Source: a virus
Taxonomy: Duplodnaviria; Caudoviricetes
Reading direction: 5' to 3' (one strand)
Length of the DNA: 64,000 nt
IMG/VR virus record: IMGVR_UViG_3300002092_001784
Coordinates: 1-64,000 of that record
The stretch's first letter is position 1; each line of letters begins with the position of its first letter. Under the pieces are notes generated by a model. That model saw nothing but the letters and a program-made list of their open reading frames with translations, did no database searches and was not told the DNA's origin. Below, one piece after another: positions 1-60,603 of the stretch. Both the position numbers and the translations under genes were made by a program.

Positions 1-420
1 ACAAGCGGAAGTAGTGGAACTAGCGGAAGCAGTGGAACATCCGCTACCAACGGAACGGCAGGTAGTGGTGGTTCATCGGGAACATCGGCAACCAACGGAA
101 CGGCAGGTAGTGGTGGTTCATCAGGAACATCGGCAACCAACGGAACAGCAGGGAGTGGAGGTTCAAGCGGAACAAGCGGAAGTAGTGGGACAAGTGGAGT
201 GAGTGGAACTCACGGAAGTGCAGGTTCATCAGGAACTTCGGGTTCAAGCGGAAGCAGTGGTACATCTGCTACCAACGGAACAGCAGGTAGCGGTGGTTCA
301 TCAGGAACATCTGGGACTCGTGGAACAGCAGGTAGTGGTGGATCAAGCGGAACTTCTGGAACATCGGGCATATCGGGGAGCTCAGGAACAAGTGGTACTT
401 CAGGTAGTAGTGGAGTATCC
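1..420 (+). repeat. Coding Gly-X-Y (GSS/GTS/ATN/GTA/GSG) collagen-like repeat tract
   Basis: Triplet-register repeats, with a recurring 15-aa unit SGTSATNGTAGSGGS. Confidence 0.9.
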
Positions 421-2799: not shown

Positions 2800-2801
2800 T
2801 T

Positions 2802-3815
2802 ATGGCATATTATGGAACAAAAATATTAGCAGGGCAGGTTAATTCAAGGACAAGAACGGTTGCTATACCCGCAACTACTGCGCCTGTAACATATATTGGC
2901 ATAAACTTGGATGATTCATTAAATACAACAGGTGCAACAATAAGTGCCGTTAATTTTAATGGTGTTAAAACATTGTGTATTGCAAAAAATAATCCATTAT
3001 GCATGATTGGTTGTATTAATACTGCAAGTACTGATGATGTTGGTGTTTATTCAAGAGATGGTGGCCAAACATGGACAGCAGTTCCATACACTTCATCTTA
3101 TGTATTTGGAGCAGCAATATCGGATGATGGTTCAGCAATGTTTATCATACGAAGTTACTATCTCTACGCAATTTATTATACTTATGATGGTGGATCAACG
3201 TGGAGTTCAAAAACAACAGGATTCGTAGCATTTCAACCAAATTATAGAGGTCCTGCGATTAATTCAACCGCATCATATGTTTTCCTTGTGAATTATGCTT
3301 CGGTAGCAGGAGCAGTAGGAGCGTATTCTACAAATAGTTGTGCAAGTTGGACAGAAATATCACTTCCTTGGTTAAGTGTTTCTACTTGTATGCCATCTGA
3401 TGGGAGTGTTGTTTGGATAGGAAAATATACGGCTGCTGGTGAGTTGCCTGTAAATGTGGCATATTCAACTAATTTTGGTTCTAGTTGGACTACGGTTGTT
3501 GTTGGAACGGGTACAACTAATACTGCTATAAATATTATTAGATGTTCATCAAATGGTGCTATTTTAATTGTTGCCGCAACTAGTGGGGATAATTATGTAA
3601 GTACCAATGCAGGTGTTAATTGGAGTAAAGCCACAGCAACTCCCGAAGCAGTCGATATTAATACCTTATCTATATCATCCGATGGGTCTAAAATTACATT
3701 CGCATCATCGGCAACAAACGGAAGATATTTTGTTAGTTCGGATTATGGAAGTAGCTGGGTTACACATAATTTCTCAGGCGTATCATTCAAATTTGGTGCA
3801 TTGGCTATACAATAA
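2802..3815 (+). CDS. Asp-box/BNR-repeat beta-propeller protein (putative receptor-binding or fibre-associated)
   Basis: Six S/T-x-(D/N)-x-G-x-(T/S/N)-W-like boxes: YSRDGGQTW, YTYDGGSTW, YSTNSCASW, YSTNFGSSW, VSTNAGVNW, VSSDYGSSW. Confidence 0.75.
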   Translation: MAYYGTKILAGQVNSRTRTVAIPATTAPVTYIGINLDDSLNTTGATISAVNFNGVKTLCIAKNNPLCMIGCINTASTDDVGVYSRDGGQTWTAVPYTSSYVFGAAISDDGSAMFIIRSYYLYAIYYTYDGGSTWSSKTTGFVAFQPNYRGPAINSTASYVFLVNYASVAGAVGAYSTNSCASWTEISLPWLSVSTCMPSDGSVVWIGKYTAAGELPVNVAYSTNFGSSWTTVVVGTGTTNTAINIIRCSSNGAILIVAATSGDNYVSTNAGVNWSKATATPEAVDINTLSISSDGSKITFASSATNGRYFVSSDYGSSWVTHNFSGVSFKFGALAIQ

Positions 3816-3831
3816 AATAAAATAAAAATAT

Positions 3832-4254
3832 ATGAATTATAATTTAGGAAAACTTATAAATGGAAATTTAATTTATTTCCAGCAACCTTCGGAAATACTT
3901 GGAGATGCGACTCAATATGCATTAGATAATGGATATAAAGAAGTAATAACAATTGATGGGAATGGTACAATGTATGAAACTGATAATTCTATCATTATTG
4001 AGAGATTACCAGTTATAAATGTACAACAAACATTTTCCAAATTAGAATTTATAAATCGATTTACCGATACGGAATTAGTAAATATTTATACTGCCTCAAA
4101 AACCATCATTGAAATCGAAATTTGGTTAGATAAATTCAAATTAGCAGAATATATTGATATTACTAGTCCAACAACAGTTTCTGGATTACAATCGTTAGAA
4201 TCCAACGGTCTGATTGGTGAAGGTAGGGCTAATCAAATTATAAATGGTAATTAA
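3832..4254 (+). CDS. Hypothetical fibre-associated protein (possible fibre assembly factor)
   Basis: Clean ORF between fibre genes. The C-terminal LEFINRFTD.E...G.IGEGRANQI pattern resembles small phage tail-associated proteins. Confidence 0.5.
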   Translation: MNYNLGKLINGNLIYFQQPSEILGDATQYALDNGYKEVITIDGNGTMYETDNSIIIERLPVINVQQTFSKLEFINRFTDTELVNIYTASKTIIEIEIWLDKFKLAEYIDITSPTTVSGLQSLESNGLIGEGRANQIINGN

Positions 4255-4303
4255 CTATTTTATAATATTTATATAAGAACTTAATGTATTTTTTCAATAT
4301 AGC

Positions 4304-6430
4304 ATGAGTAGAGCTAACAGTAGTGTAATAGTCATATCGCAAGGCACATCTGGTAGTGGTGGATCGAGCGGAAGCAGTGGTACATCAGCAACCAACGGAA
4401 CAGCAGGTAGTGGTGGTTCATCGGGAACTTCTGGTTCAAGCGGAAGTAGTGGTACTAGCGGAACGCGTGGAACGGCGGGTAGCAGTGGAACATCAGGTTC
4501 ATCGGGAACGTCGGGATCATCCGGAACTTCAGGTTCAAGCGGAACTAGCGGAAGTAGTGGTACATCGGCAACTAACGGAACAGCAGGTAGCGGTGGTTCA
4601 TCCGGAACATCTGCTACCAATGGAACAGCAGGTAGTGGTGGTTCGAGTGGAACAAGCGGAAGCAGTGGTACATCGGCAACCAACGGAACAGCAGGTAGTG
4701 GCGGTTCAAGTGGAACGTCAGGTTCTAGCGGAAGTAGTGGAACTAGCGGAAGTAGCGGTACATCTGCTACCAATGGAACAGCAGGTAGTGGAGGTTCGAG
4801 CGGAACAAGTGGAAGTAGTGGTTCATCGGGAACTTCTGGCTCAAGTGGAACATCGGGCTTATTAACTCTTACTGGAACTACCGATGGAGGTATCATTACG
4901 TTAAATGGTACGGCTCCTAACGCATCGGTCGAAAGTAATCTTACATTTGATGGAAGTAATCTACGTGTAACGGGTTCCGTATATGTAAGTTCATCTACCA
5001 CAACTTTGGGACAGTTTGCTGGCAATCAAAATGGATATGTAGAGTTTTCAGTAAGAAACACAAATAATGGAGTATCCGCATCTGGTGATATTGCAATTTA
5101 TGCTGATACCGGTACTGTATTGACTAACTATATCGATATGGGTATCAATAACTCAGGTTTAGATAGTAGTTATTTTTACGGAGGTACTGATTTCGGAAAT
5201 GCTTTAGACTCTTACTTATATAACGTAGGTGGGAATCTACGAATTGGAAACGCTACATCAACAGCCCCATATTCTCAATCCTTATACTTATTTTCAAATC
5301 CATCTGCTACTCCCGATATTACAATAACCGGTAGTAAGGTAGGTATTCGAAATACTACTCCAAACTATACATTGGATGTAACTGGTAACGGAAACTTTAC
5401 AAACGGACTTTCGGTAACTGGAAGTGTCGTTTTAACAGGATCATTAATATTACCAACTTCTGCCCAAAATCCACCGAATGGAAATACTGGCAGTATTTAC
5501 TACAATAGCACTGATACAAATATCTACCGATACAACGGAACAAATTGGGTATCGGGAGCAGGAAGTTCTGGAACTTCGGGTTCAAGTGGAAGTAGTGGTA
5601 CATCGGGTTCATCGGGAACTTCGGGTTCAAGCGGAAGCAGTGGTACATCTGCTACCAACGGAACAGCCGGTAGTGGTGGTTCAAGCGGAAGTAGTGGTAC
5701 TAGCGGAACGCGTGGAACGGCAGGTAGTAGTGGTTCATCAGGAACATCAGGTTCATCAGGTTCATCAGGAACATCGGGTACATCTACTTTAACCGTAGGT
5801 ACTACTGCAATTGCTTCGGGTGCAACAACAAATATTTTATATGATAATGGTGGTGTATTGGGAGAGTATGCAGCCGTTCCTAATACAAAATTACCTAACG
5901 GTATTATTAATATGAATACGTCAGCTCAATCTCAATTAGTTGTATCGGGTACATCGTATTATATTACAAACTCAAATTTGAACTTACCAAATCCACTACA
6001 AGGTGGTATGGTGGTTGGTACTAGATTTATTTGGAGAGTATGGCTATCTAAAGATGCGGCTGGTACTGGTACGTTTCAAATAAAAATATATCGTGGAACT
6101 ATTGGTAGTACATCGGATACAGCAGATGTTACACAAACAATAGGAACACAAACTGCGGTTGTGGATCATATGGTTGTGGATGTTACATTAATAGTCACAA
6201 CGACAGGAGCTACAGGAGCGTATTATTGGTCTATATGCGCAGTACATGCTGCCGCGAGTGCTGCTGGATTTGGTCTTGCTACTGGTAGTACTGCGTTATT
6301 TAGTGGTACGGTATCAAGTGTGGCATTAAATACCGCTTCTTTGAAATTCGGTCTTGGATTTGTAGCCACTACTGGTACTCCTACTATTGGTATTCCACAA
6401 GTACAGGCGCAAGCATTAAACATTAGTTAA
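4304..6430 (+). CDS. Second Ser/Thr collagen-like fibre protein
   Basis: 708 aa with two G-X-Y tracts, fibre-type beta repeats (VGIRNTTPNYTLDVTG) and a C-terminal globular region. Confidence 0.8.
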   Translation: MSRANSSVIVISQGTSGSGGSSGSSGTSATNGTAGSGGSSGTSGSSGSSGTSGTRGTAGSSGTSGSSGTSGSSGTSGSSGTSGSSGTSATNGTAGSGGSSGTSATNGTAGSGGSSGTSGSSGTSATNGTAGSGGSSGTSGSSGSSGTSGSSGTSATNGTAGSGGSSGTSGSSGSSGTSGSSGTSGLLTLTGTTDGGIITLNGTAPNASVESNLTFDGSNLRVTGSVYVSSSTTTLGQFAGNQNGYVEFSVRNTNNGVSASGDIAIYADTGTVLTNYIDMGINNSGLDSSYFYGGTDFGNALDSYLYNVGGNLRIGNATSTAPYSQSLYLFSNPSATPDITITGSKVGIRNTTPNYTLDVTGNGNFTNGLSVTGSVVLTGSLILPTSAQNPPNGNTGSIYYNSTDTNIYRYNGTNWVSGAGSSGTSGSSGSSGTSGSSGTSGSSGSSGTSATNGTAGSGGSSGSSGTSGTRGTAGSSGSSGTSGSSGSSGTSGTSTLTVGTTAIASGATTNILYDNGGVLGEYAAVPNTKLPNGIINMNTSAQSQLVVSGTSYYITNSNLNLPNPLQGGMVVGTRFIWRVWLSKDAAGTGTFQIKIYRGTIGSTSDTADVTQTIGTQTAVVDHMVVDVTLIVTTTGATGAYYWSICAVHAAASAAGFGLATGSTALFSGTVSSVALNTASLKFGLGFVATTGTPTIGIPQVQAQALNIS
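4340..4857 (+). repeat. Coding collagen-like repeat tract (a second tract lies at about 5555-5785)
   Basis: The same 45-nt SGTSATNGTAGSGGS unit occurs as in the first fibre gene. Confidence 0.9.
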
Positions 6431-18767: not shown

Positions 18768-21700
18768 ATGGACAATTCTGATAAAATAAAATTTACTAAT
18801 AGTCTAGCTCAAGCCACAGAAAATCTTACAAGAAAAACGGAAGAACTTAGGGCTAAAAGGCAAGAATTGGATGATTTGGATGAGAGAATTTCAATCAACA
18901 GCTCCAATTACAGTAATGAGCAATTAGAAGCCGAAAAACAAAAAAAGAAAGCGGCAGAAGAATATATTGTCGTTACCGAACGTCAAATTAAAAAAATAGA
19001 GAGATTTATATCAGCTTCGGCTGATATTAAAAAATCAGGTAAAGAGTTCAGAGAACTTAATGCTAATATAAAAGAATCTACAAATTCTACGGATACTCTT
19101 ATTGGTAGTATATCTGCTATGGGTAAGGAAGCAATTAAAACTGCTAGAACTTCCATAAAAATAGGTCCGGATGATACTTCTATTGGATTTGCACAAAAAT
19201 TAACAGAAACCATTACGGGCATACAAAAGGCTCAGTTGGGAGTTCTTGGTGCGCAGAGTGGAACTAATGATGAGTTACAAACTGCAACAAATGTACTACA
19301 ACAGCAAATGGGTATTTATTACCAATTACTGGATAGTCAATCCGCATTTATATCAGGTAATAAAACCGTTGCAAGGGGTATTAATGAAATCACACAACAG
19401 GCAAAAGAAGCCAATACTGAATTAAGTTTAATTGGTGTAGTACCTATTCAAAATTCAATAGATGCATTTAAGCAGACAAGTACTATACTTTCCTCAAACG
19501 TATTGGCAGGAAAAGAAATGTCACAAACCATGCGTAATATTGGGTATGATATTTCTAAATTGGGTGAGATACAATCCGATGTTTTTGGTAATACTGGCAA
19601 AGAATCAAGAATAATTGATTCCATCGCAGAAGCCACCGTTGCTAGAGGACAGGCAATGGTACAATTTATGAATGCCATTGCAAGCGGAGATGTGAAGCAA
19701 CAAGAAGAATCATTAAAGGTATTAAAACAAAGAGAGGCTAACTATAATTCCATCTTAACCACATATGGTAGTGAGATACGTTCTTCTGAAATGTTATCAA
19801 AAACAGTAAATAATTTAAGTAGTGAATTTGATAATCTAAAAGGTAAGATAACGGAAGTTAGTAATACCAATCCGTTTGATAGAATGAAAGATTCAGCTAT
19901 ATCGTTGAGTAATACTATATCTGATATAAAAATGTCTCAAAGTTCGACTAAAGATATGGGTGCTGGATTATCTTCAATTTCATCTGGTTCAAAATCAATT
20001 ACAACGAATGCGAAGGCGGGAAAATATGATGACAGGCAATTGGCATTTGCAGTTAAAATACAGGATGCAGCAGAAAAATACGCTCAAGCTCAAAAGGAGA
20101 ATTTTAATTCAGCGGGTAAGACCAAAGAAGAACAAAAAGAGACTGCAGATATTCTAATTCAAGCTGAAAAAATATGGGCATCGATCATAAAAGAAATGCA
20201 AGATGGTGATGCTAAATTAAAGCAATTCGCAGGTAGTGTAAATACTATGAATACCGGTTTCAAAAATGTTTCAAAGGAAATGAGAATTGTTCATGGGTTA
20301 ACCGAAGATGAAGTTACACAATTAAAAAAATTAACATCGGCCGCAGACGAGTTTGGTATAAAAATGAAAGCAATAGGTTCGACAATTAGCCTTATACGGA
20401 AAAGACCATTGGTTTTGCTTGGTTTGGGAATTATGGCGGCGGGTAAGGCTATGAGTTATCTTACCGATACCGTCAAACAGATGGGTGGTTATATTGAAGG
20501 TACTACACTAGCTACTGCAGGATTGAGTGTTTTTTTCAAAGATGCGGTCGGACAGGCAATATCACTTTCCGACCAATTTGGTGGCATTCGAAACGTATCA
20601 AATGCCACACAGTTAAATGCCAATTTATTAGCTTCTAATCTAAACCTATCCAGTGATGAAACCGCTAAATTGATTGGTGGATTTGCCCGATTAAGTGATG
20701 GTACAGCAGAAAGTGCTGAAAACTTAATGGCCGGAAGTGCAGAATTGGCAAAAGTGAATGGGTTAATACCTTCTGTTGTTATGAAGGATTTGGCAGGAAG
20801 TACTGAGCAATTTGCAATGTGGGGTGGTAAAGGTGGTGAAAATGTATTAAAAGCAGCAGTTGCCGCCGGTAAATTGGGTATTAACATGCAGAAGGTGAGC
20901 CAAGCAACTGACAAACTTCTTGATTTTGATAGTTCAATGTCAGATGAGTTAGAAGCTCAATCTATGTTAGGTAGAAATATAAATTTATCACGTGCACGTT
21001 CATTGGCATATGAGGGTAAGCGTGGCGAAGCACTTAAAGAAGAAATTACACAATTAGGTGGTATTGATCAGTGGAATAAAGCAGATTACTATGGTAAGCA
21101 AGAAATTCTTAAAATAACAGGCTTAACCGCAGAAGATTATCAGAAAGCGGCTTCAAACTTGAGTTTAATAAATGATAAGGGTGAGGTAATGGTTGAACAT
21201 GCCGAAGCCTCAAATAAGCAATTCAGTCAGGCAGACGAATTACTGAAAAATATGGCACTCAATGCCGGACCTAAAGCAGTAGAAGCTGCTGGTGGATTTA
21301 TGACATTATTAGGTGCAGCTGGAGGTATTGGGCAGGCAATTGGTGGGGCTGGTACAATAATTGGTGGAATTGGTAAACTATTTGGAAAGGGTAAAGGTGC
21401 GGAGGGTACAACGCCAACTGAAGCATCAATTCCAACAACCACTACTACGATACCGCAAGCAACTACCAATATTGGAGAAGAAGCTAAGAATATAATGGCT
21501 GAAAATGCAGCAGAAAACTTAGCCGGTAAATCAAAAATTCCTAATGTTGGTGAGGAAGTTGGAAACGTTGGTAAAGTTGAGAAAGGAGCTGAAGCTGCTA
21601 CTTCAAGCGGTGGTATCGGTGGCGCATTGAAAAATTTAGCAAGTGGATTGGAAGCAATGGGAACTGGTAAGGTTGCTATTGGTATATTAAATCTTGGATT

Positions 21701-23396
21701 GATTGCATTGGTTTTTGCTGGTGCAATGATAGCGGCAGCATATGGGTTTAACCAATTCGCTAATGTGGATTGGCAATCTATGGCAAAGGGCGGCGCTACA
21801 TTGGTTGGACTTGGTGTAATCGCATGGGGTATTTCTAAAATAGAAGGCGATATACTGAAAGGTGCCGCCGCAATTGCATTGTTAGGGCTGGCTATGATAC
21901 CGTTTGCATACGGATTGAGTTTATTAAAAGGTATAGATTTTGATACGGTAGGTGCGGCGGCTGAAGCATTATTGGTATTCGCCGCAGCGGCAGTTGTGTT
22001 CACTGCATTATCTGAAGTAATGTTGCCGGGTATTGCTATATTGGCATTATTGGGTATTGGAATTGCCGCATTTGGTGCTGGGTTGGAAATACTCGGTGGG
22101 GGTATAAAATCAGTTATATCATCATTGGGTGAAATGTCAACTCAATTAATTACATTATCTGGTATTGATTATACAAAAATATTGGGATTAGGCGCTTCTC
22201 TTGGCGTGTTGGCACTTTCACTTGGAGGATTTGCGATAACGGGATTATTGGCATTACCTGCATTGGTATCTGTGTCAGCCGGATTCAGTGTAATGGGTGT
22301 TGCTATGTTGGTAATGGGTGCTGGATTATCTGTATTATCAATGGGATTATCTTCGGTAGTGAATCAACTATCTACGTTGGCTCAGTTGGGTTTTGCTGGA
22401 ATCTTAGGGTTGGCAACTTCAATAGGATTATTATCACTTTCACTTGGTGGGTTTGCAGTAGCTGGTTTATTGGTATTACCTGCATTGGTTTCAGTTTCAG
22501 CCGGATTGTTGTTAATGGGAGCCGCATTATCTGTAATGGGGATGGGTGTATCCGTATTATCAACTTCGTTATCTACAATCGTAACTCAAATATCTGCTCT
22601 ATCACAAATCGGGTTTGCTGGGATTATGGGATTGGCCACTTCCATTGGATTATTAGCTCTTTCGCTTGGAGCATTTTCTGTGACAGGTTTATTAGTACTA
22701 CCTGCAATGGTTTCCGTTTCGGCTGGATTGGTGTTGGTTGGATTGGCACTCGGTGGTGTTGGTAGCGGATTATCTATATTATCAACCGGAGTATCTGCTA
22801 TTGTGACTCAATTATCTACTCTTTCACAAATAGGTTTTACTGATATATTAGGATTGGCTGGCTCTATGGGTATGTTGGGACTTTCATTGGGGGGATTTGC
22901 TATAAGTGGATTATTAGCAATACCTGCATTATTTGGTGTTGGTGTTGGGGTAATGGCAATGGGTGCAGCATTTACCGTAATGGGTGCTGGATTATCGGTT
23001 TTATCAACCGGATTGCCTATGGTAGTAGATCAGTTATCAGCCTTATCTCAAATAAGTTTTCTTCCAATTTTAGGATTAGCATCGGCAATAGGAACATTAT
23101 CTCTTGCTATGGTAGCATTTACAGCAGCTGGTTTATTGGCATTACCTATATTAAGTGGTGTTACGGCAGTAGGTTCGTTAATGGGTATAAATTCCAACAA
23201 TACTACTACAACTAATACTACTAAAACAGATAACGCAATACCTGCTGTGATGACGGATGTACTAAATGAAATTAAAGGATTACGAGGTGATTTGAACGCA
23301 GGAAAGATAGCAGTATATATGGATGGTGTAAAAGTTACAACGGGTGTAAATAGAGTAGTGGACAGAACTACTACAAATTATTATTCACATACATAA
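18768..23396 (+). CDS. Tape measure protein
   Basis: 1542 aa, helical and Ala/Gly-rich with a hydrophobic C-terminal half, located after tube and chaperone. Confidence 0.9.
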   Translation: MDNSDKIKFTNSLAQATENLTRKTEELRAKRQELDDLDERISINSSNYSNEQLEAEKQKKKAAEEYIVVTERQIKKIERFISASADIKKSGKEFRELNANIKESTNSTDTLIGSISAMGKEAIKTARTSIKIGPDDTSIGFAQKLTETITGIQKAQLGVLGAQSGTNDELQTATNVLQQQMGIYYQLLDSQSAFISGNKTVARGINEITQQAKEANTELSLIGVVPIQNSIDAFKQTSTILSSNVLAGKEMSQTMRNIGYDISKLGEIQSDVFGNTGKESRIIDSIAEATVARGQAMVQFMNAIASGDVKQQEESLKVLKQREANYNSILTTYGSEIRSSEMLSKTVNNLSSEFDNLKGKITEVSNTNPFDRMKDSAISLSNTISDIKMSQSSTKDMGAGLSSISSGSKSITTNAKAGKYDDRQLAFAVKIQDAAEKYAQAQKENFNSAGKTKEEQKETADILIQAEKIWASIIKEMQDGDAKLKQFAGSVNTMNTGFKNVSKEMRIVHGLTEDEVTQLKKLTSAADEFGIKMKAIGSTISLIRKRPLVLLGLGIMAAGKAMSYLTDTVKQMGGYIEGTTLATAGLSVFFKDAVGQAISLSDQFGGIRNVSNATQLNANLLASNLNLSSDETAKLIGGFARLSDGTAESAENLMAGSAELAKVNGLIPSVVMKDLAGSTEQFAMWGGKGGENVLKAAVAAGKLGINMQKVSQATDKLLDFDSSMSDELEAQSMLGRNINLSRARSLAYEGKRGEALKEEITQLGGIDQWNKADYYGKQEILKITGLTAEDYQKAASNLSLINDKGEVMVEHAEASNKQFSQADELLKNMALNAGPKAVEAAGGFMTLLGAAGGIGQAIGGAGTIIGGIGKLFGKGKGAEGTTPTEASIPTTTTTIPQATTNIGEEAKNIMAENAAENLAGKSKIPNVGEEVGNVGKVEKGAEAATSSGGIGGALKNLASGLEAMGTGKVAIGILNLGLIALVFAGAMIAAAYGFNQFANVDWQSMAKGGATLVGLGVIAWGISKIEGDILKGAAAIALLGLAMIPFAYGLSLLKGIDFDTVGAAAEALLVFAAAAVVFTALSEVMLPGIAILALLGIGIAAFGAGLEILGGGIKSVISSLGEMSTQLITLSGIDYTKILGLGASLGVLALSLGGFAITGLLALPALVSVSAGFSVMGVAMLVMGAGLSVLSMGLSSVVNQLSTLAQLGFAGILGLATSIGLLSLSLGGFAVAGLLVLPALVSVSAGLLLMGAALSVMGMGVSVLSTSLSTIVTQISALSQIGFAGIMGLATSIGLLALSLGAFSVTGLLVLPAMVSVSAGLVLVGLALGGVGSGLSILSTGVSAIVTQLSTLSQIGFTDILGLAGSMGMLGLSLGGFAISGLLAIPALFGVGVGVMAMGAAFTVMGAGLSVLSTGLPMVVDQLSALSQISFLPILGLASAIGTLSLAMVAFTAAGLLALPILSGVTAVGSLMGINSNNTTTTNTTKTDNAIPAVMTDVLNEIKGLRGDLNAGKIAVYMDGVKVTTGVNRVVDRTTTNYYSHT
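22143..23160 (+). repeat. About 4.6 tandem copies of a 74-aa (222-nt) hydrophobic unit in the tape measure
   Basis: Units start at 22143, 22365, 22587, 22809 and 23031 (Q(L/I)xxL...ILGL...LSLGGF...GLL.LPA). Confidence 0.9.
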
Positions 23397-54372: not shown

Positions 54373-54404
54373 TTTGGAAATACGAATAATTTTTCGTATA
54401 TTTG
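54373..54404 (+). promoter_or_regulatory. Bacteroidota-type promoter
   Basis: TTTG-N20-TATATTTG. Confidence 0.8.
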
Positions 54405-54439
54405 TACAGAATATAAAATTTAACAATAAACTTTGAAAC

Positions 54440-55135
54440 ATGAAAAGAGCAAAACTCGATGGTTTTATTAATCGTTACAATTTGGGTGGCGAAATTGAGT
54501 CTGTTATGATTAAATCAACAGATGAAAAATTATCAGTCCGTATGATTTCGGATGATAAAACATTATTGGGAACAGTATCTATGTTGGATACTGAATTTCC
54601 TACGGGAGAATTTGGAATTTATACAACTTCCCAATTGAAGGGATTACTGAATGTATTGGATGATGGCATCACCGTAGAGGAAGTTACAGGTGCATTAAAA
54701 TTTTCGGATAAGAAAACCAAAATGCAATATATGTTGGCAGCGCCATCGGTTATTCCATCCGTACCAGAACTTAAAGCATTACCTGCATTTGAAGCAGAAA
54801 TTGCATTGAATGATGAATTTGTAAATAAGTTCATTAAATCTACCGGAGCATTATCTGATTCTCTTACATTTACATTCACCTACAAAAAAGGTGTTGGTGA
54901 GATTATTTTAGGATATTCATCTATCAATTCAAATCGTATTGCTATTGATACTGATACGAAATCGGAAGTTGATATTGAACCAATTGCGTTTTCATCAAAA
55001 TATCTGAAAGCTATTCTTAATGCAAATCGGGGTGCTAAAACATCTTCATTGAAGATTTCATCTAAGGGGTTGGCAGCTGTTTCATTTGAGGCAGATGAAT
55101 ATACTACCCAGTATTATCTTGTTGAAGTAAAATAA
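54440..55135 (+). CDS. Sliding clamp (gp45/PCNA-like)
   Basis: 231 aa two-domain alpha/beta pattern, FGIY...L..LL and F...YL..IL motifs; lies near PolB and the clamp loader. Confidence 0.7.
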   Translation: MKRAKLDGFINRYNLGGEIESVMIKSTDEKLSVRMISDDKTLLGTVSMLDTEFPTGEFGIYTTSQLKGLLNVLDDGITVEEVTGALKFSDKKTKMQYMLAAPSVIPSVPELKALPAFEAEIALNDEFVNKFIKSTGALSDSLTFTFTYKKGVGEIILGYSSINSNRIAIDTDTKSEVDIEPIAFSSKYLKAILNANRGAKTSSLKISSKGLAAVSFEADEYTTQYYLVEVK

Positions 55136-55150
55136 TTAAAATCATAAAGT

Positions 55151-56365
55151 ATGAATTTTTGGGATACTGAACCACAAACACCTGTTTTTGATTTTGATAT
55201 TGAAAAACAGAAATTGATTGAAAATATGGATTATCTGTTTGCAATGTCCGTTCAAGAACAGACACTTTATAAAAAATGGGTGGAGCTCCAAGAACCTACC
55301 ATGCAGAAAGATAAATCCCAAATATCCACATATTATGATATGCAATGGAAACCAACCGATATCAATAATAAGGAACTAACGATTGCCGAAATTCAATCGT
55401 TAGAACCTTATGTTGAGATTGTGGATGATAATGCTGCCGAATCTACCAAATGGGCTCAAATCCGTAGAATGATTCATACAATGGATTTTACGGCAAACCC
55501 CGGTAGAAATGTGAAAATCAATGTAAAGGATAGAAAGACGGGTAAGTTATTGGGTCAAATTTCTCTTGCATCGGATGTTACATCATTGGGGGTGCGTGAT
55601 GAATATATTGGGTGGACTAAGGATGACAAATTCAAAAAAGGTAAACTGAATCACACTACCATTGCATCTACTATTGTATGTACACAGCCATTGGGATATA
55701 ACTTTTTGGGTGGTAAACTGATAGCTATGATGTGTACTGTACCTGAAGTTAGAGAACATTGGAAGAAAAAATACGATAATACTTTAATCGCAGTTGGAAC
55801 AACTTCGTTATATGGTATCAATTCTCAGTACACAGGCCTTCCACTTTTCAAAACTTTGGGTGAAAGTAAAGGTAAGATCAGTATAAAACCTGATGATAAA
55901 TTTTATGATCCATGGCACCAATGGTTAAAAGAAAATCGTACAGAGTGGTATAAGAAAAACATAACAGAAGAGCGTGAACGAAATGGCGCTAATATGGGTT
56001 ATGAACGAAATGGACCTGTTAGTGGCATCAAACAAAAGATTCTTACACAAATTTTCAAAGAGTGTGGTATTAAAGCAAATGAATATCATCACGGATTTAA
56101 GCGTGGAATTTATTTGGCTATGATGTACGAAAATGGTAATGATTTTCTTTGTGATAAAATTGGTGAAGACCAACTAAAACTTAGAGATAAGTTTGTGAAG
56201 GGAACAGATTATATTATGGAGTGGTGGAAACGACACGCTATTAGTAGATATACCAAGCTACATACAGAGGGACGTTTGAAACCGGATCATCTTTTTTACA
56301 TCAATGGTATAGGACAAGATTGGGATAGCTTTAAGGCCGAATACTTAGGAGAAGTTGGACGTTAA
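55151..56365 (+). CDS. DUF4338/DruA-like protein
   Basis: PGRN...V.D..TGK.LG.I.L.SD...L..RD.YIGW, P.GYNFLGGKL.A and TTSLYG..SQY motifs; starts MNFW. Confidence 0.7.
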   Translation: MNFWDTEPQTPVFDFDIEKQKLIENMDYLFAMSVQEQTLYKKWVELQEPTMQKDKSQISTYYDMQWKPTDINNKELTIAEIQSLEPYVEIVDDNAAESTKWAQIRRMIHTMDFTANPGRNVKINVKDRKTGKLLGQISLASDVTSLGVRDEYIGWTKDDKFKKGKLNHTTIASTIVCTQPLGYNFLGGKLIAMMCTVPEVREHWKKKYDNTLIAVGTTSLYGINSQYTGLPLFKTLGESKGKISIKPDDKFYDPWHQWLKENRTEWYKKNITEERERNGANMGYERNGPVSGIKQKILTQIFKECGIKANEYHHGFKRGIYLAMMYENGNDFLCDKIGEDQLKLRDKFVKGTDYIMEWWKRHAISRYTKLHTEGRLKPDHLFYINGIGQDWDSFKAEYLGEVGR

Positions 56366-56376
56366 AAACAATAATT

Positions 56377-56556
56377 ATGAAACAGTATGTCAGACTATGG
56401 GGTGATGCTAGTGAGCAATATTTATGGTCATATTTAGAAGATTTGGTTAACAAAGGTTATACGATTATTTCAGTAACTCCAACTGAATGGTATACAAAAC
56501 CATTTAGACCAGACCACTATCAGGTAGTTGAAGCAGTCATTATAGTAAGTAAGTAA
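56377..56556 (+). CDS. Hypothetical 59-aa protein (absent from the ORF track)
   Basis: MKQYVRLWG...VIIVSK* fills the gap exactly. Confidence 0.5.
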   Translation: MKQYVRLWGDASEQYLWSYLEDLVNKGYTIISVTPTEWYTKPFRPDHYQVVEAVIIVSK

Positions 56557-56561
56557 AACGT

Positions 56562-56873
56562 ATGAAAATGGAAGAAACGATAAAAAAATATACAGATTTA
56601 GGAGTACTGCCTGAGAAAGTAGTATATACGCCGCTTTCCTCATTATGTATATGGTCTATAAGTAGAAAGTGTTTAGTTGGGAGTGATGCGAAGTATCCTG
56701 CCGAAGAGTTGGTTAAGGACGGTAAAAACTATAAAATTACTTATGAAAATAACCGTATGGTATCATTACATATTCATACTACTATAAATGCCGATGAGAT
56801 CAATAAATCGGAAGGTATTATAGTTACAGAGTGTGATACATTTTTTCGTTATGAATTTATACCTACAAAATAA
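56562..56873 (+). CDS. Hypothetical protein
   Basis: 103-aa ORF within the operon. Confidence 0.55.
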   Translation: MKMEETIKKYTDLGVLPEKVVYTPLSSLCIWSISRKCLVGSDAKYPAEELVKDGKNYKITYENNRMVSLHIHTTINADEINKSEGIIVTECDTFFRYEFIPTK

Positions 56874-56890
56874 AAATTAAGAAATTAAAT

Positions 56891-57316
56891 ATGAAAGTAA
56901 AAATAAAAAAACTATCAAATACAGCAGTAATACCAACATATTCAAAACCCGGAGATGCTGGATTGGATTTAACCGCAACTGGAATTATAAGTAATACGAC
57001 TTTCGAAATTACATATGGAACTGGTATTGCATTACAAATCCCAGACGGATATGTTGGATTGATATTTCCTCGTTCATCTATACGAAAATACGAATTACAA
57101 CTGAGTAATTCAGTTGGTGTAATAGATAGTGGATACAGGGGAGAGATACAGTTTACATTTAATAAAACAAACAAACTTGATTCGTTCTCGTATCGTGTAG
57201 GTGATAGAATCGGGCAGATTATAATATTACCATATCCACAAATTGAATTTGAAGAAACGGATGAACTATCTGATACGGAAAGAGGTGATGGTGGGTTTGG
57301 GCATACTGGAAAATAA
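56891..57316 (+). CDS. dut: Trimeric dUTPase
   Basis: AGLDL, RSS, GVIDSGYRGEI and RG.GGFGHTG motifs. Confidence 0.95.
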   Translation: MKVKIKKLSNTAVIPTYSKPGDAGLDLTATGIISNTTFEITYGTGIALQIPDGYVGLIFPRSSIRKYELQLSNSVGVIDSGYRGEIQFTFNKTNKLDSFSYRVGDRIGQIIILPYPQIEFEETDELSDTERGDGGFGHTGK

Positions 57317-57324
57317 TACGAATT

Positions 57325-57858
57325 ATGAGTCAAACAATTAAATTATTAAAAGAAGCATTAAAAGATATAGCCGGAGATACTACCGGCTATAAAATTTACT
57401 GTGATATGGATGGTGTTCTTACGGATTTTGATAAACAATTCAAAGATATAACAGGTATACCTGCTAATGAATTTGAAAAAACACATTCTCAAACTGAATT
57501 TTGGGGAGAAGTTGAAAAGGGCGGATTGGAATATTGGACAAAAATGGAATGGATGCCGGGTGGAAAGCAGTTATGGAATTTTATTAAGAACTATGATGTT
57601 GAAATTCTATCAGCTCCATCAAAATCTAAACTTTCAATTATTGGTAAAAAGCAATGGGTATCTGAAAACCTATCACCTAAACCTAAATTGAATTTGGTTA
57701 GAGCCAAAGAAAAACAGAAGTTTGCAAATTCACACGCAATACTAATCGATGATAGACCACAAAATTTAGAACAATGGAAAGCAGCCGGTGGTATTGCAAT
57801 AAAATGTGTGAATGGTGAGGTTAGTTCAGTAATAGATAAATTAAAAAAATATGTTTGA
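57325..57858 (+). CDS. HAD 5'(3')-deoxyribonucleotidase-like protein
   Basis: CDMDGVLTDF, ILSAP and LIDDR..N motifs. Confidence 0.85.
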   Translation: MSQTIKLLKEALKDIAGDTTGYKIYCDMDGVLTDFDKQFKDITGIPANEFEKTHSQTEFWGEVEKGGLEYWTKMEWMPGGKQLWNFIKNYDVEILSAPSKSKLSIIGKKQWVSENLSPKPKLNLVRAKEKQKFANSHAILIDDRPQNLEQWKAAGGIAIKCVNGEVSSVIDKLKKYV

Positions 57859-58792
57859 AACAGTAAACGAAAAGAAAAACAACAGTTTATGGACTGAGTC
57901 ATACCGACCAACCAAATTGGCGGATTACATCGGAAATGAACACTTAAAATCAAAAGTAGAGGGGTATTTGGAATCGGGCGATATACCTCATTTACTGTTA
58001 TATGGCAAAGCTGGAACTGGTAAGACTACATTGGCTAAATTGATTGTAAATTCAATCGATTGTGATATGATGATTATCAACGCATCTGATGAAAACAATG
58101 TTGAAACAGTTAGAACAAAGGTGAAGAACTTTGCATCGTCTATGGGATTCAAACCATTTAAGATTGTTATTTTGGATGAGTTTGATTATATGACTGCAAA
58201 CGCACAGGCGATTCTTCGTAACTTAATGGAAACATTTTCACAGCATTGCCGGTTTATCTTAACGTGTAATTATGTTGAAAAGGTAATTGAACCAATTCAG
58301 AGCAGATGTCAGACATTTCAAATCGTACCGCCAACTAAAAAAGATGTTGCAATTCGGATAAGTCAAATATTGAAAGACCAGAACATAAAGTTTGAGTTGA
58401 AGGATTTGGTTCCTGTTATTGATGCAGCATATCCTGATATTCGTAAGATTATTAATACCTGTCAACTTAATTCTATTAAAGGTGAATTGAAGGTTGATGT
58501 TCAAAATCTGTTAGAGAATGATTATAAGACCAAAATTGTGGACATTCTTACATCTAAAAATGATAAAAGAAATAAGTACATGCAATGCAGGCAAACTCTT
58601 ATTGATTCAAAGGTTACAGATTTTACCGAACTATATACGTTACTTTACGATAAAGTTGACGAATACGGCGGTGAAAATACAGCTAATATCATTTTGATAT
58701 TAGGGGAGAGTGTATATAAGAGTGCGTTGGCAATCGACAAAGAAATCATTGCTGCGGCGACAATTATTAGTATCATTAATCTGATAGGATAA
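57851..58792 (+). CDS. Clamp loader AAA+ subunit (gp44/RFC-small-like)
   Basis: W.E.YRP, GKAGTGKTT, INASD, LDEFD and SRC motifs. Confidence 0.92.
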   Translation: MFETVNEKKNNSLWTESYRPTKLADYIGNEHLKSKVEGYLESGDIPHLLLYGKAGTGKTTLAKLIVNSIDCDMMIINASDENNVETVRTKVKNFASSMGFKPFKIVILDEFDYMTANAQAILRNLMETFSQHCRFILTCNYVEKVIEPIQSRCQTFQIVPPTKKDVAIRISQILKDQNIKFELKDLVPVIDAAYPDIRKIINTCQLNSIKGELKVDVQNLLENDYKTKIVDILTSKNDKRNKYMQCRQTLIDSKVTDFTELYTLLYDKVDEYGGENTANIILILGESVYKSALAIDKEIIAAATIISIINLIG

Positions 58793-58821
58793 TCTACTTT
58801 TTTAATTTGGTAATATTTATA

Positions 58822-58904
58822 TATGTAGGGTCACAGCTACATAAATAACGAATTAAAATATACCCATTGGTGAGTAGAGACTGTGACCTCGAAAGCCTAT
58901 GGGT
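58822..58904 (+). ncRNA. Putative structured RNA: two hairpins with complementary (kissing) loops in the endonuclease 5' UTR
   Basis: TATGTAG/CTACATA stem with loop GGTCACAG, the exact complement of CTGTGACC (58881-88) inside the ACCCATTGG/CCTATGGGT hairpin. Confidence 0.6.
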
Positions 58905-58915
58905 TTTTTATTAAG

Positions 58916-59737
58916 ATGGCATATGTTTATAAACACACACGGTTAGACACTAACGAAGTATTTTATATTGGTATTGGTAACGATTTGGAATATAAAAGAG
59001 CATACGATGTTCGTAATGGGAGAAACGCACATTGGAAACGGGTTATTAATAAAACAGAATATACGGTAGAAATTATTGAGGATTGTATTGATAGAGAAAT
59101 CGCATGTGAACGTGAAAAATATTGGATTAATTTCTATGGTAGACGAGACCTGAATGAAGGAACTTTGGTAAATATGACTGATGGAGGAGACGGTGGGGAT
59201 ACCATTACCGGTCACCCAAATCGAATTGAAATATTGAAAAAGAAATCTGATTCCGCTAAGGGGCGTGTTGTGTCGGATGAGATAAGACTCAAAATATCAA
59301 AAGCACATAAGGGAATTTCAATGATAGATAAATATGGTGAAGAACGTGCTTTGGAAATGAAGAGGAAAATGGCAGAAGCATCTACCGGCCGCATCATCTC
59401 AGAAGAAACCCGCCGTAAACTAAGTGAAGCGAGTAAAAATATATCCGAAAAGACTCGAAGTAAACTAAGTGAAGCCAGTAAATTGTGGCACTCAAATAAC
59501 GAATGTCCAATGACAGGAAAAACTCATTCTGATGAAACTAAACAGAAAATGAGTGATTCTCATAAAGGATATATTAAAAGTGAAGAGCATCGAAAGCATT
59601 TGAGTGAATCCAGAATTGGAATGAAGTTTTCAGACCAGCATATACAAAAATTAAAAGAGTCTCATACTGGTAAGACCGCATCGGAGGAAACAAAACGAAA
59701 AATGAGTGAATCACAAAAAAACAGATATAAAAAATAA
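58916..59737 (+). CDS. GIY-YIG homing endonuclease with NUMOD3 repeats
   Basis: AYVYKH...FYIGIG...RA, E...I..YGR, N.TDGG.G and repeated (H/S)EET(K/R).K(M/L)S. Start moved to ATG 58916. Confidence 0.9.
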   Translation: MAYVYKHTRLDTNEVFYIGIGNDLEYKRAYDVRNGRNAHWKRVINKTEYTVEIIEDCIDREIACEREKYWINFYGRRDLNEGTLVNMTDGGDGGDTITGHPNRIEILKKKSDSAKGRVVSDEIRLKISKAHKGISMIDKYGEERALEMKRKMAEASTGRIISEETRRKLSEASKNISEKTRSKLSEASKLWHSNNECPMTGKTHSDETKQKMSDSHKGYIKSEEHRKHLSESRIGMKFSDQHIQKLKESHTGKTASEETKRKMSESQKNRYKK

Positions 59738-59744
59738 ATAAATT

Positions 59745-60047
59745 ATGGGAAATTTAATAGGAGCCGGCGATACGCCGAATCAACAACAGAAAAAAATAAT
59801 GGCAGACCTTTCGGCATCCAAACCGATGTTATGTGTAGGATGTGGATATGATGTATTCTTACCCGCAATTAAACTACGAAAAATATCCAAACTGATGATA
59901 GGCAGTACAGCAGATCAGATATTACCATTGGATGTGTTTGTATGTGGAAACTGTGGCGCAGTGAACGAAGAACTGTTACCAATTCAAATTAGAACATTAG
60001 AAGCAGCAGAGAAACAACAAAAATCTTCAGTAATCGAACCTGAGTAA
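59745..60047 (+). CDS. Zinc-ribbon protein
   Basis: CVGCG...CGNCG. Confidence 0.65.
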   Translation: MGNLIGAGDTPNQQQKKIMADLSASKPMLCVGCGYDVFLPAIKLRKISKLMIGSTADQILPLDVFVCGNCGAVNEELLPIQIRTLEAAEKQQKSSVIEPE

Positions 60048-60536
60048 ATGGCTAAAACTGTAAAGGAAAAAAAAGAAGTTATAAAAACAACAAAAACGTT
60101 GTTCGATCATATTAAAGCGGTTACCAACGATCAAAATCCCAAATATTGGGAAAGTTTGGACGAATCGGATAAAAAGACGTGGTCGAACTATATGATTATA
60201 CGATTTATGACTATGAATCCGGATTGGGTTGAGTTGATTTCTGAAGTACAACCGTATTTGCAAGAAGCTCCGCCTAAAGCAGTTTATAAGGCATTGATTG
60301 GTGTAATACCTAAAAGTAGGGCGTTTTTGAAGTATATGAAAGCCGCATCATCGGAAACCTATGAACAATGGGTAGTTGATTTGGTAGCTAAGTATTATGG
60401 TGTGAGTCTTATGGAAGCAGAAGATTATTTACATATTTTGTATAAGAGCCATACTGGAAAACTTCATATTAAAGAGATAGCTGAATCATTTGGAACTGAT
60501 ACCAAAAGTATCACAAAACTAAAATTAGGAGTATAA
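60048..60536 (+). CDS. Clamp loader small subunit (gp62-like)
   Basis: Y.I.RF...D, IPK...F.KY.K and LVAKYY.VS..EA..Y motifs; two genes after the gp44-like gene. Confidence 0.7.
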   Translation: MAKTVKEKKEVIKTTKTLFDHIKAVTNDQNPKYWESLDESDKKTWSNYMIIRFMTMNPDWVELISEVQPYLQEAPPKAVYKALIGVIPKSRAFLKYMKAASSETYEQWVVDLVAKYYGVSLMEAEDYLHILYKSHTGKLHIKEIAESFGTDTKSITKLKLGV

Positions 60537-60571
60537 TAATTGAATTATTTTTGTTAAAATATCCGGGTAAA

Positions 60572-60603
60572 TTTGTTTATTCGGATATTTTTTTGTATCT
60601 TTG
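60572..60603 (+). promoter_or_regulatory. Bacteroidota-type promoter overlapping a terminator-like hairpin (about 60557-60594)
   Basis: TTTG-N20-TATCTTTG; the TTTG is the loop of the ATATCCGGGTAAA/TTTATTCGGATAT hairpin. Confidence 0.75.

Follow-up and report, generated by a model that had tools for sequence, protein, structure and literature searches.

A candidate kissing-loop transcription attenuator ahead of mobile endonuclease and other selfish phage genes

The window analysed here comprises 64,000 nucleotides (nt), the first 64 kb of the 266-kb virus record IMGVR_UViG_3300002092_001784 (Duplodnaviria; Caudoviricetes), and at positions 58822-58915 it holds a two-hairpin RNA element directly ahead of a GIY-YIG homing-endonuclease gene. 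Judged by comparison with about 100 homologues, this element is a conserved structured RNA of the sense strand in which the two hairpin loops are joined by a loop-loop (“kissing”) helix of 7-8 Watson-Crick base pairs, and by the same kind of comparison the RNA module moves together with endonuclease genes and other selfish genes. With regard to function, we put the probability at roughly one half that the element is a kissing-loop-gated transcription attenuator, serving as the 5' leader of a self-contained mobile cassette. An original prediction, made from the letters of the window alone, had read the element as a functional RNA travelling with the mobile endonuclease and had offered an attenuator, a translational switch, a ribozyme or an endonuclease partner as its possible function; among these options the anatomy favours the attenuator.

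All features described for the locus lie on the + strand. The late-type promoter motif ATATTTATAT (58813-58822), recognised from its sequence, its enrichment and its membership of the repeat family D7/D19, leads into hairpin 1 (58822-58843), which has the 7-bp stem TATGTAG/CTACATA and an 8-nt loop, GGTCACAG (58829-58836), that constitutes the 5' kissing strand. After an A/U-rich linker of 18 nt (58844-58861) comes the terminator-like hairpin 2 (58862-58904), built from a lower stem of 10 positions (ACCCATTGGT/GCCTATGGGT, with one U-U mismatch), an internal loop of the sarcin-ricin type (58872-58876 GAGUA opposite 58891-58894 GAAA), an upper stem of 3 bp (GAG/CTC) and an apical loop of 8 nt. 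The 3' kissing strand CTGTGACC (58881-58888) is the exact complement of loop 1 and covers the apical loop and the first base of the upper stem. A U6 (T6) tract at 58904-58909 follows directly after hairpin 2, and the endonuclease ATG at 58916 is situated 6 nt past the T run and 11 nt past the end of hairpin 2, with no Shine-Dalgarno sequence present between hairpin 2 and the AUG. The motif, both hairpins, the 8-nt complement, the U run and the ATG had all been given in the original prediction and were confirmed to the base, and so was its description of the element as GC-rich against its flanks, at least for hairpin 2 (51% G+C, compared with 32% in the flanks and 35% in the window), the linker having 11% G+C. 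Both hairpins are present in the minimum-free-energy fold (-28.2 kcal/mol, z = -2.1), with predicted energies of -6.3 kcal/mol for hairpin 1, -13.8 kcal/mol for hairpin 2 and -12.3 kcal/mol for the loop-loop duplex. At the sequence level the internal loop has the sarcin-ricin arrangement of AGUA opposite GAA with flanking G-A and Watson-Crick pairs, and the near-identical internal loop of the small RNA TEG147 is assigned to the sarcin-ricin motif by JAR3D with 100% acceptance.

By itself the loop complementarity is not significant, as the original prediction had picked its site from 64 kb and a long-range complement of at least 8 nt occurs in 4.7% of dinucleotide shuffles of the 94 nt; it is convincing only because homologues keep the pairing. 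Such homologues were collected from IMG/VR with a pattern derived from the internal loop of hairpin 2, which matched more than 118 places. Chance would give a similar total spread evenly over gap lengths, whereas the actual matches concentrate at gaps of 27-30 nt, where 42 unique elements were found, all of them with the whole anatomy. A stricter pattern applied to JGI metagenome contigs yielded 59 further unique elements, which brings the total to about 100 homologues that are not identical to one another. Their sequences differ, with about 30 distinct kissing sequences altogether, yet hairpin 1 always has a loop complementary to the apical loop of its own hairpin 2. Cognate loops share approximately 7 nt of complementarity, compared with 3.6-3.9 nt for non-cognate loops, in two independent collections.

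The alignment of 20 sequences shows what is conserved. The six aligned columns of the kissing helix are 100% paired and five of the six pairs have changed on both sides, as have four of the five pairs in the stem of hairpin 1; within one subfamily only two of seven kissing pairs are near-invariant. Over the whole structure 94.6% of the cells are paired, compared with 34-44% when the partners are slid against each other, and the observed covariation score was reached by none of 500 shuffles. Since the G-U pairs in this alignment are invariant on the + strand, the selected structure is the RNA of the gene's sense strand. A covariance model with the window sequence among its seeds matches 58825-58912 at 87.5 bits. 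Compensatory loop changes among homologues, whose absence was named with the original prediction as counting against it, are seen throughout these approximately 100 elements.

The members share a common plan of promoter, 5' hairpin 1, A/U-rich linker (11-29 nt), hairpin 2, U run and start codon. A promoter motif lies just upstream of hairpin 1 in 35 of the 42 unique IMG/VR members (29 with the Bacteroidota-type TAnnTTTG and 6 with a late-type motif), and the median distance from the promoter box to the start of hairpin 1 is about 5 nt. The base of hairpin 2 is of the terminator type, in the window a CCC/GGG stem with U6 directly after it, and both the G+C-rich stem and the U run are kept across the family, the T columns of the run being invariant or nearly so in the alignments. 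In most members the ATG follows 3-13 nt after the U run, and because a same-strand upstream open reading frame (ORF) ends about 0-30 nt before the promoter and hairpin 1, the module makes up the whole intergenic space. Hairpin 2 of the pattern-found members carries a GAGUAG/CGAAAG internal loop of the sarcin-ricin type, but the presence of this loop was forced by the search pattern and its conservation is partly imposed in this way. An unbiased sample, taken upstream of the homologues of one downstream gene, has the same two-hairpin, kissing and U-run design with other internal loops. As these sister elements differ in the internal loop, we regard the loop-loop contact as the core feature and the sarcin-ricin-type loop as the mark of one subfamily. 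A relaxed architecture scan across all loci was too noisy outside one locus set.

With respect to distribution, the element is present in one copy in the 266-kb genome by both the covariance model and the architecture scan, and in one copy in each of five phage genomes of about 34 kb. In the 266-kb genome the covariance model gave only the element and a plain terminator at 252.7 kb (E ~1), and the architecture scan only the element and one probable chance match. The carrier phages are of very different size and come from freshwater and marine samples. There was no match among cultured phages (INPHARED), and the strict pattern had 0 matches in prokaryote genomes represented by one per species, while the relaxed pattern gave one true match in the same genomes, on a 6-kb contig binned as Bacteroidetes; the covariance model found nothing in 151 sampled Bacteroidota genomes, a search run without a positive control that proves little. 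The comparison with Rfam proposed together with the original prediction came back empty, since in permissive mode no family of Rfam 15 fits the window region (E up to 10) or eight other members (E up to 1), and the best match, TEG147 (RF03535) at 58857-58910, reaches only 23.4 bits against a gathering score of 56.1.

The cassette interrupts a clamp-loader operon. Upstream of it lies the gene for the clamp-loader large subunit, a gp44-like AAA+ protein (57851-58792, +; Pfam AAA, DNA_pol3_delta2), and downstream a small conserved ORF and the gene for a gp62-like clamp-loader subunit (59745-60536, +; Phage_clamp_A). The gp44-like protein has 75 relatives at 58-84% identity. About 70 related contigs have no cassette, and there the ATG of the small ORF (here 59745) lies next to the gp44 stop codon or overlaps it. 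Because gp44 meets the small ORF in these relatives, 58793-59744 (+) is an insertion of 952 bp, carrying the promoter, the leader RNA and the endonuclease gene (58916-59737, +; 273 aa; Pfam GIY-YIG 24.3 bits, NUMOD3 61.5 bits). Three copies of this cassette type were found, each at a site of its own: between gp44 and gp62 in the window (loop GGTCACAG), inside a glycosyltransferase gene in L188 (loop GGTTACTG) and after an AAA ATPase gene in L291 (loop GTTGCGG), each loop being matched in its own hairpin 2. When the linker sequence was used as the query for further copies, L188 was the sole match in IMG/VR and the metagenome contigs gave none; the L291 cassette was recovered by the general pattern. 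The endonucleases of the window and of L188 are 54% identical. In L188 (8606-10961) the RNA and GIY-YIG cassette appears to split the glycosyltransferase gene into two ORFs, the downstream piece of which matches profile positions 160-371 of 374. In the window the C-terminal half of the endonuclease (59513-59719) consists of NUMOD3-like repeat units, copies of a 54-nt DNA repeat being 72% identical (family D15), and these self-similar segments are also picked up by BLASTP.

The association extends well beyond this cassette type. Downstream of the RNA stand genes of at least 12 lineages of homing endonucleases, which belong to several nuclease families (GIY-YIG with NUMOD3 or NUMOD1, GIY_YIG_2, HNH, HNH_3 and NUMOD4/HNH_3/AP2), and, besides these, KilA-N, P22 antirepressor/Bro-N, AntA and DUF6291 genes and ORFs with no assigned function. 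In related 34-kb phages the element is situated at a mosaic junction where one upstream gene is joined to differing downstream genes (upstream cluster U1 with downstream clusters D1, D2 and D4; U2 with D1, D2, D4 and D10). Near-identical elements of the phages typified by L125 (e.g. L125 5926-6040) occur with three loop alleles, GTAACGG, GTCGTGG and GTTGCAG, which assort independently of the genes on both sides. The claim that a functional RNA travels with the mobile endonuclease is supported by the approximately 30 loop sequences that keep their pairing, by the 952-bp insertion and by the three unrelated sites. At the same time, most relatives of the window endonuclease have no leader RNA, 27 loci with GIY-YIG relatives being without it, and it is absent from the other endonuclease genes of the same genome as well; since the RNA is missing from both, it is not an obligate partner of the endonuclease.

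The label “late promoter motif” is fair, because ATATTTATAT is enriched in the window (10 copies compared with 2.1 expected) and among the genes it precedes are those for tail fibre, tail sheath and baseplate hub. A second motif family, TTTG-N17-23-TAnnTTTG, has 17 copies in the window where 4.8 are expected. This is the form that we take to be the housekeeping promoter of Bacteroidota, and it suggests a host of that phylum. No copy of it lies within 54373-60572, and as neither the small ORF nor gp62 has its own promoter motif, both must be transcribed through hairpin 2. The natural end of the clamp-loader operon is marked by a 16-bp terminator-like hairpin (60556-60591) overlapping a TTTG..TAtcTTTG promoter (60572-60603), a composite with the stem-loop over the promoter (60556-60603) that resembles the PeSL cassettes discussed below. 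Other endonuclease genes of the same 266-kb genome are arranged differently. At about 208340-208390 an endonuclease-like gene (ATG at 208383), with a Zn-ribbon N-terminus and NUMOD3-like repeats, is preceded by a perfect 13-bp hairpin that holds the late motif in its loop and then by a T run; this is the classic layout of a late promoter inside an inhibitory hairpin. At two more endonuclease genes, with ATGs at 205677 and 234365, the late motif ends 2 nt before the ATG, a spacing that suggests leaderless or near-leaderless late mRNAs.

Given this arrangement, the attenuator could work as follows. Hairpin 1 is at or within a few nt of the expected transcript start, and the loop-loop helix would form during transcription, ahead of synthesis of the 3' arm of hairpin 2. 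The kissing helix would then control the ease with which the lower stem is closed at the U run, and through this closure the amount of transcription passing on into the downstream gene, a potentially harmful one whose product cuts DNA. We lean only slightly towards a kissing helix that hinders full closure of hairpin 2 rather than promoting termination, because of the analogy with the guanidine-IV riboswitch, the short linkers and the fact that gp62 is reached only through the site; the terminator would then be leaky when loop and linker are free. A crude length estimate, made for straight stacking, has the helices spanning a median of 0.93 of the fully stretched linker when hairpin 2 is fully closed and 0.45 when only its upper part is formed, which suggests a tension between terminator closure and loop contact as in guanidine-IV. 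No listed RNA run was found to contain the phage of the window; in relatives, metatranscriptome contigs start at hairpin 1 and cross the U run into the gene; contigs cannot prove transcript ends, and their course is a weak hint that fits a leaky terminator.

For the cassette type of the window an additional layer is predicted. An upstream arm (58800-58810, +) has the potential to pair with the linker (58849-58858) in the minimum-free-energy fold, with 14 pairs between upstream sequence and linker compared with 6.1 when the upstream sequence is shuffled, and the extended hairpin 58800-58858 predicted in that fold has its helix also in the RNAalifold consensus of the three homologous cassettes. 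It would enclose the late promoter and could form only in transcripts read through from upstream. These read-through transcripts would fold the extended hairpin and swallow the linker, and early and late transcripts would then behave differently, as they do at T4 endonuclease genes.

Several observations weigh against the attenuator as described. The lower stem of hairpin 2 encloses 23 nt, so that the hairpin is not the uninterrupted stem with a loop of 3-8 nt expected of a standard terminator, and a simple intrinsic-terminator scanner did not call it. The U run is interrupted in some members (e.g. L118 and L163). The helix between upstream arm and linker has no clean compensatory change across the three cassettes, and pairing of this kind is not enriched family-wide (mean 4.8 pairs, compared with 4.6 in controls). 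The length estimate assumes straight coaxial stacking, and kissing complexes can bend and so remove the strain. The family conserves no mutually exclusive secondary structure; formally, hairpin 2 and the kissing helix can coexist as a pseudoknot. A plain hairpin could terminate either weakly or strongly, so a need for attenuation would not by itself account for the retention of the loop-loop helix, and an opposite role is possible in which the loop contact organises the hairpin with its 23-nt interior for efficient termination.

A further possibility, which we consider rather doubtful, is a self-titrating attenuator, a countertranscript system that needs only one sense RNA. Each nascent leader would at first, early in infection, form the loop-loop helix in cis and so keep its terminator open, and released leaders would then accumulate as the phage genome replicates. 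Their free loops would capture the hairpin-1 loop of new transcripts within the window of about one second before the cis partner is made, whereupon the terminator would close and the gene shut off. Such a circuit would give mobile or dose-sensitive genes an expression pulse independent of copy number, and the varying loops would be specificity (“incompatibility”) alleles between co-infecting phages, which would fit the independently assorting loop alleles of the related 34-kb phages.

Among the alternatives to an attenuator, the simplest is an ordinary terminator whose loop complementarity arose by chance, and it can be put aside almost completely: the frequency of 8-nt complements in shuffled sequence (4.7%) would allow it for one locus, but the complementarity is kept in about 100 non-identical homologues with about 30 loop sequences, no shuffle attains the covariation score, and chance is refuted by the covariation. 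That the RNA cleaves itself as a ribozyme or serves the endonuclease as a cofactor, two of the functions in the original prediction, is very improbable, even though it travels with endonuclease genes and has a GAAA/CUGA-like sequence near a helix. No Rfam ribozyme family matches at E up to 10, and the RNA serves three unrelated nuclease folds, also stands ahead of non-nuclease genes (Bro/KilA-N/Ant and DUF6291) and is lacking from most GIY-YIG relatives. The hammerhead ribozyme was considered specifically and rejected, as the core CUGANGA...GAAA...UH does not occur, the GUGAGUA of the element has a U at the essential G8, and Rfam gives no match. We also find it quite improbable that termination is set by a factor bound to the fold, be it a small molecule, like guanidine in the guanidine-IV riboswitch, a protein of the phage or the host, or RNA polymerase itself. 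The put RNA of phage HK022 is an example of an RNA fold that sets termination via RNA polymerase, and sarcin-ricin-type loops often bind proteins. The architecture is the same as in guanidine-IV, the largest subfamily strictly preserves the GAGUAG/CGAAAG loop, and the similar TEG147 loop is placed in the sarcin-ricin motif by JAR3D. Against such a factor, loop sequence is free to vary and the contact consists of 7-8 plain Watson-Crick pairs (-8 to -12 kcal/mol), so that no conserved pocket remains, the conservation of the sarcin-ricin loop is in part a product of the search and the loop is absent from sister subfamilies, there is no match to the guanidine-IV or any other riboswitch model, and the downstream genes are unrelated to metabolism.

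Two further explanations are possible but unlikely, and we give them about equal weight. One is a 5' stabiliser and translation insulator, in which a 5' hairpin, held in place by its contact with hairpin 2, protects the mRNA from 5'-end-dependent decay, the A/U-rich start region is kept unpaired so that the cassette is expressed alike at any site, and the U run serves ribosome binding instead of termination. To our knowledge, hosts with the Bacteroidota-type promoter use no Shine-Dalgarno pairing, which would suit this role, as would the placement of hairpin 1, a median of about 5 nt past the promoter box and so at the predicted 5' end, the metatranscriptome contigs that start at hairpin 1 and continue into the gene, the degenerate U runs of some members and the fact that the module works behind two promoter types. 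A G+C-rich stem followed by U6-8 is, on the other hand, the canonical signal of an intrinsic terminator, and it is conserved, and one 5' hairpin would suffice for protection. The other is a stand-alone small RNA of about 90 nt with its own promoter and terminator that acts in trans, e.g. as a protein sponge via the sarcin-ricin loop, the downstream gene being merely served by read-through or hitchhiking. Promoter, compact fold and U run do make up a complete small transcription unit, each genome has one copy, the element assorts independently of both flanking genes, and the nearest Rfam model, TEG147, is listed among the “bona fide” small RNAs expressed in S. aureus HG003 (PMC5826253). Yet in most members a start codon follows within 3-13 nt with no promoter between, both loops are occupied intramolecularly so that little is left for pairing in trans, and the subfamilies without the sarcin-ricin loop leave the class with no general protein-binding motif. 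In the 266-kb genome no trans target of about 14 nt or more was found, the DNA search for a trans partner giving only promoter matches of 16-18 nt.

Elsewhere in the window, a 404-aa ORF at 55151-56365 matches the Druantia defence protein DruA (Pfam PF14236, E 1.3e-21), here in a jumbo phage. Positions 1-5800 are dense in 9-nt-periodic Gly/Ser-rich (collagen-like) repeats in several tail-fibre-type ORFs (families D1-D4; PHROG tail fibre), and five tandem units of 222 nt, 70-84% identical, are found at 22215-23152 within a 1542-aa ORF (18768-23396; family D5).

Homing-endonuclease genes and other selfish phage genes need to be expressed without harming the genome they have invaded, and the controls known so far, from a few T4-like phages, are hairpins of an ad hoc kind. 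The RNA module described here is portable and conserved, has very strong covariation, and appears to be common to many unrelated mobile genes. If the attenuator reading is correct, the module would be a natural “plug-and-play” expression controller for mobile genes and a ligand-free design relative of the kissing-loop riboswitches, suited to the study of how loop-loop contacts gate intrinsic termination. It would also provide a marker for mobile cassettes in uncultured phages of the Bacteroidota type, and its programmable loops would be of interest to RNA engineers.

Of the known systems, the guanidine-IV riboswitch (mepA motif, with its Gd4v variant) is the closest in architecture. Its two hairpins are connected through a loop-loop pseudoknot, the one on the 3' side acts as a Rho-independent terminator, and closure of that hairpin makes the linker shorter, in competition with the loop contact (PMC9788692). 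The leader is alike in having two kissing hairpins, the 3' one terminator-like, just upstream of a gene. It differs in that its loops vary freely (about 30 sequences) and form 7-8 plain Watson-Crick pairs with no conserved ligand pocket, and the guanidine-IV covariance model matches neither the window nor eight other members. Moreover, the leader stands ahead of mobile genes (endonuclease, Bro/KilA-N/Ant, DUF6291) and not of guanidine exporter or detoxification genes, and the family is confined to phages and has a sarcin-ricin-type internal loop.

For homing-endonuclease genes, multi-layer control by late promoters, hairpins and terminators is documented, in the T4 family for I-TevI, segB, Aeh1 mobE and T4 mobE (PMC2988022). 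There, a late promoter stands directly upstream of a free-standing endonuclease gene inserted between essential genes, a terminator limits endonuclease transcripts, and certain RNA structures can form only in longer, upstream-initiated transcripts. The cassette of the window has a comparable insertion, a late-type promoter motif and a terminator-shaped hairpin, and for the third feature a predicted extended hairpin that has no clean covariation. The T4 hairpins, however, are single, phage-specific and hide the Shine-Dalgarno site, whereas the leader is a conserved two-hairpin kissing fold found across unrelated phages and ahead of non-endonuclease genes as well, and it ends 11 nt before an AUG that has no Shine-Dalgarno sequence. 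The PeSLs, composite promoter/stem-loop cassettes of T4-like phages (PMC2839356, PMC4122927), are similarly compact intergenic modules of promoter and terminator that flank accessory genes at mosaic junctions. But PeSLs occur in many copies per genome, in hyperplastic regions, and have their stem-loop within or before the promoter, outside the transcript of that promoter, whereas the leader is single-copy in the 266-kb genome and the five genomes of about 34 kb, has both hairpins downstream of its promoter and owes its conservation to RNA pairing.

TEG147 (RF03535) is a small RNA from a genomic island of Staphylococcus aureus, classed as “bona fide” in strain HG003 (PMC5826253). It has a terminator-type hairpin with a GAGUAG/CGAAA internal loop, sarcin-ricin by JAR3D, in common with the leader, but its Rfam model contains no upstream kissing hairpin, and at a score below the gathering threshold the likeness is not shown to be homology. 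Endonuclease-gene hairpins and terminators, PeSL cassettes and kissing-loop terminator riboswitches are thus each known singly, while a conserved kissing-loop leader that is free of a ligand pocket and common to many mobile genes of uncultured phages is absent from Rfam 15 and apparently undescribed in the literature searched.

The proposed use of the loops has a parallel in plasmid control. In countertranscript attenuation (pT181, pIP501) and in the loop-target pseudoknot of ColIb-P9 repZ, brief co-transcriptional loop-loop contacts decide on a terminator or on translation of the replication gene, and specificity groups are set by the sequences of the loops. At the leader no antisense promoter was identified, and where the partner loop of the countertranscript systems resides on a separate antisense RNA, the leader carries both loops on one sense RNA.

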